Assembly: GCA_017938725.1 (NCBI GenBank)
Contig: JAGBAW010000027.1
Span: 696-64,695, forward strand
Length of the DNA stretch: 64,000 nucleotides
Direction: 5' to 3'
DNA from: Bacilli bacterium
Lineage (GTDB): Bacteria > Bacillota_I > Bacilli_A > RF39 > UBA660
Position numbers and translations under genes: made by a program. Below, one piece after another: positions 618-1,319 of this stretch (its first letter is position 1; each line of letters begins with the position of its first letter). A model generated the notes under the pieces. It was not told the DNA's origin. It made no database searches and worked only from the letters and a program-made list of their open reading frames with translations.

Positions 618-1319
618 ATGAGCAATGACATAATAGTTAAGGATATTTCACAGATTGATTTAAAACATTCATTTTTTCATTATACCAGTAAGCAAAACCT
701 AGATACTATTTTAAAAAATGGACTTGAACCAAGAATTGGAGAAAACTCTTTATATGTTGAGAAAACACCTAAAGTGTTCTTTGTAGAGGGCGAAAAAGGT
801 ATTATAACTATTATGGATGTTTGGTTAAGATGGTTAACTTCAAAAAGTAATGTTAATAAATTTGTATATTGGCTTGGTACTTTTTATATGAGAACTCCAT
901 TCTGCGTAAAAGGTATTCCCAATAGTATTGTTAAGAAAAATTTAAATAATATTAAAAAACGCAATAAAGTATACAGTAAAATGAAGAAAATTCTTGATAA
1001 TAGCATTTTTCTTATTTTGGATTTAGAGGAAAATATTGATTTTGATTATAATGATATAGACGAAGTAAAAGATACATACTATGAATCTTTTTTAAAATTA
1101 TTATACCCTAGTAGCAGTAACATAAAGGACAAGAAAATGGAATACTGGAATATGCATACTTATTCAAATAAAATTATAAATCCTTTAAAAATTTCATTAC
1201 TAAAGAATAATGATAATTATATTGCAAATGACATATTAATCAATATAATAGAAAATAATATTGAATATATCAAGATTAATTGTGAATTTTTATATGAATA
1301 TTATATTTATATTAAATAA
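618..1319 (+). CDS. Putative ADP-ribosyltransferase-fold protein (DarT/DUF4433- or Tpt1-like); function unproven
   Basis: N-terminal motif FFHYTSKQNLDTILKNGLEP resembles the [Y/F]H-x-T-x3-NL-x2-IL-x2-GL signature of DarT/Tpt1-type ART folds. Monocistronic, with a strong terminator downstream. 233 aa, similar to DarT size. Confidence 0.45.
   Translation: MSNDIIVKDISQIDLKHSFFHYTSKQNLDTILKNGLEPRIGENSLYVEKTPKVFFVEGEKGIITIMDVWLRWLTSKSNVNKFVYWLGTFYMRTPFCVKGIPNSIVKKNLNNIKKRNKVYSKMKKILDNSIFLILDLEENIDFDYNDIDEVKDTYYESFLKLLYPSSSNIKDKKMEYWNMHTYSNKIINPLKISLLKNNDNYIANDILINIIENNIEYIKINCEFLYEYYIYIK

Follow-up and report, generated by a model that had tools for sequence, protein, structure and literature searches.

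Does a gene whose product resembles the DarT toxins at its N-terminus, and which has no macrodomain antitoxin beside it, encode an orphaned or inactivated toxin, or is standing alone the normal condition of a family of its own? The question is raised by an open reading frame (ORF) at positions 618..1319 of the forward strand in a 64,000-nucleotide stretch of DNA from a Bacilli bacterium (GenBank assembly GCA_017938725.1, contig JAGBAW010000027.1, positions 696 to 64,695), which we refer to at its full length as the window. The ORF call confirmed the gene as an earlier sequence-only reading had delimited it: it is intact, starts with ATG and encodes 233 residues, the N-terminus reading MSNDIIVKDISQIDLKHSFFHYTSKQNLDTILKNGLEP, and the identical protein, P0001, is recorded as 'hypothetical protein, Bacilli bacterium'. 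We favour, at somewhat better than even chances, a model whereby this protein is a functional stand-alone enzyme of an undescribed family, most likely belonging, in highly derived form, to the H-Y-[E/D/Q] branch of ADP-ribosyltransferases (ARTs). The model builds on the ORF itself, the family and its conservation, the selection acting on the gene, a similarity to ARTs at the level of a motif, the absence of a partner and a linkage to an HD phosphohydrolase.

The window protein matches no profile in Pfam, NCBIfam, PADLOC or PHROGs, and the family is not described in the literature that we searched. Judged by its relatives, the protein is an intact member of an unnamed and undescribed but real protein family: a collection of 5.8 billion proteins yielded 246 family matches and an exhaustive HMMER scan yielded 310 family clusters at 50% identity, with no match or cluster named or domain-annotated. 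The family is present in 58 GTDB species-representative genomes, the records being metagenome-assembled genomes (MAGs) of uncultured gut 'Bacilli', 'Tenericutes' or 'Mollicutes', while a phage origin was rejected, as no family copy was found in INPHARED phages or IMG/VR. The sequence-only reading had raised the possibility that the window copy is inactivated, and this finds no support. The copy retains all family-invariant residues, the ratio of nonsynonymous to synonymous substitution rates (dN/dS) against nine orthologues is 0.10-0.18, values that are approximate because dS is near saturation, and the G+C content is native (22.9% in the gene vs 24.3% in the window); by all of these sequence criteria the gene is functional. 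Elsewhere in the family, one MAG carries two divergent copies (L043/L051), tandem paralogues occur, and two copies are broken by frameshifts into two ORFs (L055 689-1432 and L074 3989-4709), so that some lineages are losing the gene. Copies thus appear and decay quickly, as is usual for accessory or conflict genes. Together with a place on the chromosome that varies between genomes, the paralogues and the pseudogenes found now and then mark an accessory, conflict-type gene, not a housekeeping one. Close members (<=73% identity) also occur in MAG records titled Saccharibacteria or Muribaculaceae (L020, L027, L029, L050, L067, L068, L072 and L074); these titles conflict with the Bacilli/Tenericutes labels of the other carriers, and mislabelled bins or contamination are likely.

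The similarity to ARTs centers on a putative nicotinamide adenine dinucleotide (NAD)-binding module at residues 19-58 (672..791, forward strand), which comprises FFH21YT (β1), NLDTILKNGLEP (α1) and K52VFF55 (β2). When a diverse family profile (A2; 46 sequences, 23-50% identity) was searched against all 177,635 distinct PDB sequences, four matches at E<=10 were obtained, all of them ARTs of the H-Y-E clade, namely E. coli DarT1 (8baq, E=0.011) and three of TkoKptA (E~0.4), and all four cover the same 25 residues of the β1-His/α1 element. A shallower family profile gave the same outcome with DarT1 again at the top (E=0.011-0.038 over both profiles). Consistently, hhalign aligned the family with a DarT profile of 65 sequences at a probability of 92.8% (pairwise E=4e-7, 31 columns). 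For this comparison a genuine DarT1-NADAR pair of Acetoanaerobium was retrieved. This pair (L013 2431-4357, Acetoanaerobium noterae NZ_CP154629.1) is unannotated, with a NADAR-DarT1 match (E=4.5e-88) after the DarT gene; the DarT protein has 407 residues, including a coiled-coil N-terminal extension of ~190 residues, and the 2.6-Mb record is filed as a 'plasmid' with four annotated features.

At the level of residues, the DarT N-terminal motif of the type hFHFT..NL.SIL..GL is present in the family, and DarT1 from E. coli C7 (8baq), the best PDB match by both sequence profile and local structure, agrees with it over β1-His/α1 (SLFHFTHSDNLTSILDNGL versus SFFHYTSKQNLDTILKNGL). The motif LYHGTxxxNLxSILxxGLxP of the NAD lobe of Tpt1/KptA (TkoKptA 9ld4, Tpt1 6ede/8tfi) also matches the family motif. 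The N-terminal signature common to DarT and Tpt1/KptA that had been noticed from the sequence is thus borne out by the profile searches. Among 115 non-redundant family members, over which all conservation was counted, H21 is found in 113 and G35 in 114; position 54 is aromatic in 114 (Phe in 101, Tyr in 13) and F55 is likewise kept in 114. The AlphaFold2 (AF2) model of the window protein places H21 in a strand (residues 19-24) followed by a helix (25-34) and residues 52-54 in a further strand. In Foldseek, β1-α1 superposes locally on DarT1 and Tpt1 at 0.9 Å over 22-23 residues, with 52% identity over 23 residues for DarT1, and the top 14 weak matches are all ARTs (KptA/Tpt1, pertussis S1, DarT1), while a control model of the compact relative P0335 had no ARTs among its weak matches. 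The likeness of the N-terminal motif to ARTs is therefore beyond chance but short, and the NAD-binding module is likely homologous to that of ARTs, as judged from sequence. The AF2 model has a predicted local distance difference test (pLDDT) score of 81, a predicted template modelling (pTM) score of 0.82 and six strands, the same number as in the ART core (PMC11543638). A full ART fold is plausible for the window protein.

Two compact relatives help to delineate the core of this predicted fold. In P0197 it is the second domain that can be aligned, from family residue 19 to 226 (hhalign probability 93%, 141 columns), leaving out residues ~78-125 and the D146-K151 loop region. P0335, a protein of 137 residues from the Pseudomonas silesiensis megaplasmid pPL1 (L014 3932-4429), has only its first ~60 residues in common with the family (tblastn E=4e-5 and hhalign 95% against the N-terminal module) and ends in 'GYEIAILEPVP'. 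No more than five close homologues of it were found, Pfam has no match, and it may represent a minimal ancestral core. Both relatives are uncharacterised, belong to no Pfam family and lack three elements of the family: a family-specific helical insertion at residues ~78-127 (849..998, forward strand; three helices in the model), a D-I-D148-E-V-K151 loop at residues 146-151 (1053..1070, forward strand) and the WNMHT motif. That the alignments skip the insertions implies that the family core is small. The window protein is accordingly modelled as a small β-α core with a helical insertion, a DxDExK loop and a family-specific C-terminal three-helix cap (residues 203-232; 1224..1313, forward strand; pLDDT ~95). 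P0335 was also tried as a bridge to known folds and rejected, as its AF2 model has a pLDDT of 52 and its Foldseek list is noise (CorA, RNase A); it was kept as the negative control only. Longer fusions of the family domain are found in P0156, P0251, P0182, P0181, P0216, P0221, P0235, P0203, P0151 and P0155, their additions being HExxH-containing regions, ankyrin-like C-terminal tails, N-terminal coiled coils and C-terminal transmembrane anchors, none of which Pfam recognised.

A candidate catalytic acid lies in E175-Y-W-N178-M-H-T (residues 175-181; 1140..1160, forward strand), ahead of a strand modelled at residues 180-182 in a segment of low pLDDT. Position 175 is Glu in 72, Asp in 38 and Gln in 2 of the 115 members, while W177 is kept in 109, N178 in 114 and T181 in 110; in the DxDExK loop, D148 is found in 110 and K151 in 109. 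The conservation of H21, F54/F55 and E/D/Q175 fits the prediction of an H-[Y/F]-[E/D/Q] triad, and we propose these residues as the candidate ART triad.

If the full ART fold applies, the use of NAD+, the catalytic residues, the substrate and the biological role may be envisaged as follows. The core would run from β1 with His21 through α1, β2 with Phe54/Phe55, α2, β3 and β4 to β5, with the helical block of ~50 residues (~78-127) and the DxDExK loop inserted in it, the acidic residue 175 and Asn178 placed directly before β4 and the three-helix bundle capping the C-terminus. His21 and the N-terminus of α1 would hold the adenosine-ribose and diphosphate of NAD+, Phe54/55 would stack on the nicotinamide, and the departure of the nicotinamide and the transfer of ADP-ribose to the acceptor would be driven by Glu175, perhaps helped by Asn178 or Asp148. 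The acceptor would most likely be a nucleic-acid base or a terminal phosphate, because nucleic acids are the targets of the nearest relatives, DNA bases in the case of DarT and RNA/DNA phosphates in that of Tpt1/KptA (PMC11543638, PMC6097658, PMC6182162, PMC9503650), and because the gene is coupled to an HD phosphohydrolase in some lineages. Where present, the HD enzyme would process or remove the product.

Several observations weigh against this model. The similarity to ARTs is limited to ~25-31 residues, and the ART matches of Foldseek repeat the same short motif; against PDB and BFVD, no significant fold match was found for the AF2 model (best E=0.95). The C-terminal halves of the family and DarT have no similarity by hhalign (probability 0.7%), the other pairs of C-terminal halves giving 0.1% for the family vs P0335 and 2% for P0335 vs DarT. 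Model confidence is lowest in the candidate catalytic-loop regions (pLDDT 55-66, with residues 177-179 <50), and two further conserved acids, E48 and D148, rival residue 175 as the catalytic candidate. The HD linkage is confined to three of 62 loci and one fusion and is absent at the window. The central claim, in short, rests on a motif of 30 residues and on the logic of conservation. Diphtheria toxin, in which the triad pattern is H21, Y54 and E148-Y-I-N, might have added weight through a family pattern of H21, F54/F55 and E175-Y-W-N with the same spacing from His to the aromatic residue. The toxin sequence, verified against 1dtp, gave an insignificant hhalign probability of 0.1%, with the best register setting H21 on H21, and we therefore dropped this likeness as evidence. 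The family also differs from diphtheria toxin and PARP-type enzymes in having usually Phe, not Tyr, and wholly different insertions and overall architecture.

The most serious rival has an appreciable, though distinctly minority, chance of being right: that the protein is not an ART and has a different or novel fold, the short motif hhHxT..NL..I...GL.P being common to it, DarT and Tpt1 either because it arose convergently or because it is an ancient element for binding nucleotides. The protein would then have a chemistry unrelated to NAD+ and might, for example, be some other hydrolase or a binding protein, with the DxDExK and WNMHT motifs at its centre. The missing fold match despite a pTM of 0.82, the end of profile similarity at 31 columns, the invariant C-terminal motifs D148-x-x-K151 and W177-N178-M-H-T181 that find no counterpart in the DarT alignment, and the failure of any of 56 family sequences to reach an ART Pfam model all agree with such a protein. 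In those Pfam scans none of the 46 diverse relatives reaches PF14487 even at E<=10 and one matches PF01885 at E=0.066; with 10 further relatives included, only scattered matches below the cut-off appear, to Tox-ART-HYD1 and PTS_2-RNA, which speak for an ART, and also to DUF7002. The motif match, however, is selective, given that across all PDB sequences only ARTs score and that hhalign against DarT reaches 93%; the aromatic pair lies at the spacing from His expected for β2; and a position restricted to E/D/Q precedes a strand, as the ART triad predicts. Moreover, large insertions can make Foldseek miss ART cores.

A derived ART is not the same as a DarT or a Tpt1. The sequence-only reading had named DUF4433 and PF01885 as the families to search, and neither profile is reached: the window protein has no match to the DarT model PF14487 even at E<=1 (gathering threshold 22.5 bits; the Acetoanaerobium DarT, as positive control, scores 54 bits) and none to the Tpt1/KptA model PF01885 (gathering threshold 26 bits). 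By these profiles it is a member of neither, and the family is probably a distant relative of both. The family resembles DarT in being bacterial and cytoplasmic and in its size of ~210-230 residues, and differs from it in the unique helical insertion of ~50 residues, the DxDExK loop and the C-terminal helical cap, with no alignment past ~31 columns. The QAE[IV]L catalytic strand motif seen in the 65-sequence DarT alignment is likewise absent from the family, in which the conserved acid 175 cannot be aligned to the DarT catalytic glutamate, E152 in DarT1 (PMC11543638).

DarT genes are normally accompanied by a DarG macrodomain or a NADAR partner, whereas the family is solo. The absence of an adjacent macrodomain antitoxin, already noted from the sequence, was confirmed in wider surroundings, as no macrodomain, NADAR or ARH domain was found in the seven downstream ORFs or in the 8-kb flanks of the gene in contig L009, which is identical. 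When all ORFs of at least 70 residues (>=70 aa) were clustered in 62 family loci, no neighbour family occurred in more than nine loci and none at a fixed position, and a scan for small ORFs (25-120 residues, within 500 bp) found nothing but pieces of family copies that are broken. Manual inspection of six contexts showed each to be different, several lying between housekeeping genes (LigA, exonuclease VII/YchF, Ppx/RadA/DisA). The lack of any conserved neighbour or small ORF excludes a two-gene architecture of the DarTG type; the gene is solo in essentially all 62 loci, and the missing partner is the normal state of the family. Thus, of the DarT/Tpt1-like orphan toxin that had been proposed, the likeness of the NAD-binding element stands, while family membership and the orphan framing do not.

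The window gene also appears to be transcribed alone, with its own promoter-like site, Shine-Dalgarno sequence and terminator. A terminator-like hairpin of the upstream gene (455..491, forward strand; 15-bp stem, -16.9 kcal/mol) would isolate it as its own transcription unit. It is preceded by a sigma-70-like match, TTGACA-17-AATTAT (569..597, forward strand; 10/12), by consensus only and of a kind common in AT-rich DNA such as here, and by a GGGAG Shine-Dalgarno sequence (604..608, forward strand) 9 nt 5' of the ATG, read from the sequence. Behind it lies an intrinsic-terminator-like hairpin, AACCCTTA-TAATT-TAAGGGTT, followed by TTTATTTTTT (1366..1396, forward strand; the hairpin itself 1366-1386, with the T-run after it). 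Two terminator-like sites were seen in 1.4 kb, where 0.1 would be expected. The strong terminator claimed earlier is real but moderate, a hairpin of 8 bp at -9.6 kcal/mol. Over the -35 hexamer lies an inverted repeat of 11 nt, ATTTTGTCAAT / ATTGACAATAT (538-548 / 568-578, that is 538..578; 91% complementary), which may be an operator for some repressor of the gene. Because there is no protein antitoxin and the gene is transcribed alone, control would be intrinsic, through the insertion or cap, or transcriptional, through the inverted repeat over the -35 hexamer, or else unnecessary if the enzyme does its host no harm.

Control by a non-canonical partner was the third option of the sequence-only reading. 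We consider it rather unlikely that the protein is such a toxin, akin to DarT, or an effector of abortive infection, within a toxin-antitoxin or defence system whose neutraliser is non-canonical, whether unlinked, an RNA or one of the WYL/SIS/Ham1 genes downstream. DarT1 is the best similarity of the family, its tandem paralogues and pseudogenised copies fit conflict genes, the inverted repeat over the promoter could allow tight repression, and the setting is variable, island-like and close to defence-type genes (reverse transcriptase, HEPN_Apea and integrase in L001/L002; a dinD/PDC-S13 remnant and a WYL regulator in the window). Against this, no neighbour family recurs in more than nine of the 62 loci or at a fixed position, there is no conserved flanking small ORF, no macro, NADAR or ARH domain is found within 8 kb, and many copies lie between housekeeping genes. 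PADLOC has no matching model for the window protein, its paralogues, the fusion forms or the HD partner, and the Rfam scan of 1-10 kb of the window found no RNA family. The WYL/SIS/Ham1 genes accompany the genotype of the window only, and on this ground we rejected them as partners.

The one association of the family that we could find is rare and specific to one family of HD phosphohydrolases, as a fusion or a tight operon. P0195 is a fusion of the family domain with an HD domain (PF01966, E=3.7e-9), and this HD domain shares 47% identity (E=4e-46) with a free-standing HD protein of L001-L004, whose gene precedes that of the family member by 43 bp (5325-6729 in L001). At L069 3947-6033 and L070 244-2361, two divergent family paralogues are followed by an orthologous HD gene (53-80% identical) with gaps of 4-12 bp. 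By sequence, the HD partner has no relative in PDB and only weak, below-cut-off similarity to GlnD-HD/HDIG. No orthologue of it was found over the whole 64-kb window. Two candidates were also discarded, namely the upstream 213-aa gene of the window as a hidden partner of the HD type and an HD protein in L008 as an orthologue, since both are unrelated to the HD partner.

We speculate that an unrecognised, NAD+-using ART-like clade of uncultured gut Bacilli with reduced genomes and its dedicated HD phosphohydrolase form a writer/eraser or two-step pair acting on nucleic-acid bases or phosphate ends, and that the solo form in the window is a single-gene conflict effector checked by its own helical insertion or cap, a proposal that is tentative and has a low probability of being correct as a whole. 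The HD link has a parallel in the Runella RNA-repair cluster, which holds Tpt1 together with HD-Pnk, an HD end-healing enzyme (PMC6097658), and the C-terminal 'hP..KI' strand pattern of Tpt1/KptA is reminiscent of the family. Tpt1, in turn, depends on the essential tetrad Arg16-His17-Arg64-Arg119, of which Arg16-His17 lie in an N-terminal RNA-binding lobe (PMC6097658). The family has no such lobe, only 18 poorly conserved residues preceding the His motif at residue 19, and no conserved Arg-His pair or later invariant Arg. It does conserve an acidic residue at position 175. Chemistry of the Tpt1 type is not known to need an acidic residue like this one. A functional analogue of Tpt1/KptA, ADP-ribosylating nucleic-acid phosphates with NAD+ (2'-PO4 removal, 5'-phosphate capping) and served by the HD phosphoesterase as an end-healing or product-processing partner, is very improbable. 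In its favour, KptA comes second among the PDB sequence matches, Tpt1s appear repeatedly among the Foldseek matches, the second compact domain of P0197 weakly matches PF01885 (E=0.0027, 18.2 bits), the HD fusion and operon parallel the Runella cluster and a weak HAD/PNKP-phosphatase-like gene lies two genes downstream in L001. Against it, the PF01885 threshold is not reached, nothing in the family corresponds to the RNA lobe or the Arg-His-Arg-Arg tetrad, the 62 loci show no linked ligase, kinase or 2H gene, the accessory, mobile distribution is unlike that of a housekeeping repair enzyme and the HD link is rare.

What is new here is the family, its insertion-bearing architecture, the solo organisation of its gene and the HD link. 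Because Pfam, NCBIfam and PADLOC models miss the family, it is annotated as 'hypothetical' everywhere. Its hosts are uncultured gut Bacilli/'Tenericutes' of almost unknown biology, among which it is widespread, with no fewer than 58 species carrying it. If the ART assignment is true, the family would constitute a new family-level branch of nucleic-acid-modifying ADP-ribosyltransferases with an architecture not seen in DarT, Tpt1, pierisin/ScARP or PARPs, in which a helical insertion divides the core and a macro/NADAR eraser is lacking, and its HD phosphohydrolase link would point to a class of reversal or processing enzyme not yet tied to ADP-ribosylation. If the assignment fails, the family would still be a conserved, structured domain of unknown fold that merits an entry as a domain of unknown function (DUF).

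The genes downstream of the window gene follow the order given by the sequence-only reading, a dinD pseudogene and then WYL/SIS-like/Ham1-like genes. The dinD-like gene (NCBIfam PRK11525; PADLOC candidate PDC-S13) is split into 1652-1921 and 2044-2484, the halves covering PRK11525 residues 6-84 and 132-276; a single frameshift near 1905-1925 breaks it, with the DinD reading resuming in the +2 frame. The split is identical in all contigs with the identical target protein and would thus reflect either a fixed pseudogene or a homopolymer assembly error. Beyond this remnant, 2552-3037 encodes a WYL-helix-turn-helix regulator, 3095-4177 an SIS-like protein of 360 aa and 4179-4799, beginning 1 nt after the SIS-like stop, a Ham1/ITPase-like protein; the three genes look like one operon. 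The SIS-like and Ham1-like proteins have no PADLOC match; the set could comprise a ligand-sensing regulator and a nucleotide-sanitising or nucleotide-modifying pair. Finally, we note that L001 and L002 differ at 8268-11132, ~1.5 kb downstream of the family gene, where between identical flanks a reverse transcriptase (586 aa) is swapped for a HEPN_Apea protein (436 aa), and that a phage-type integrase adjoins each variant gene, suggesting a hot spot for the exchange of defence islands.

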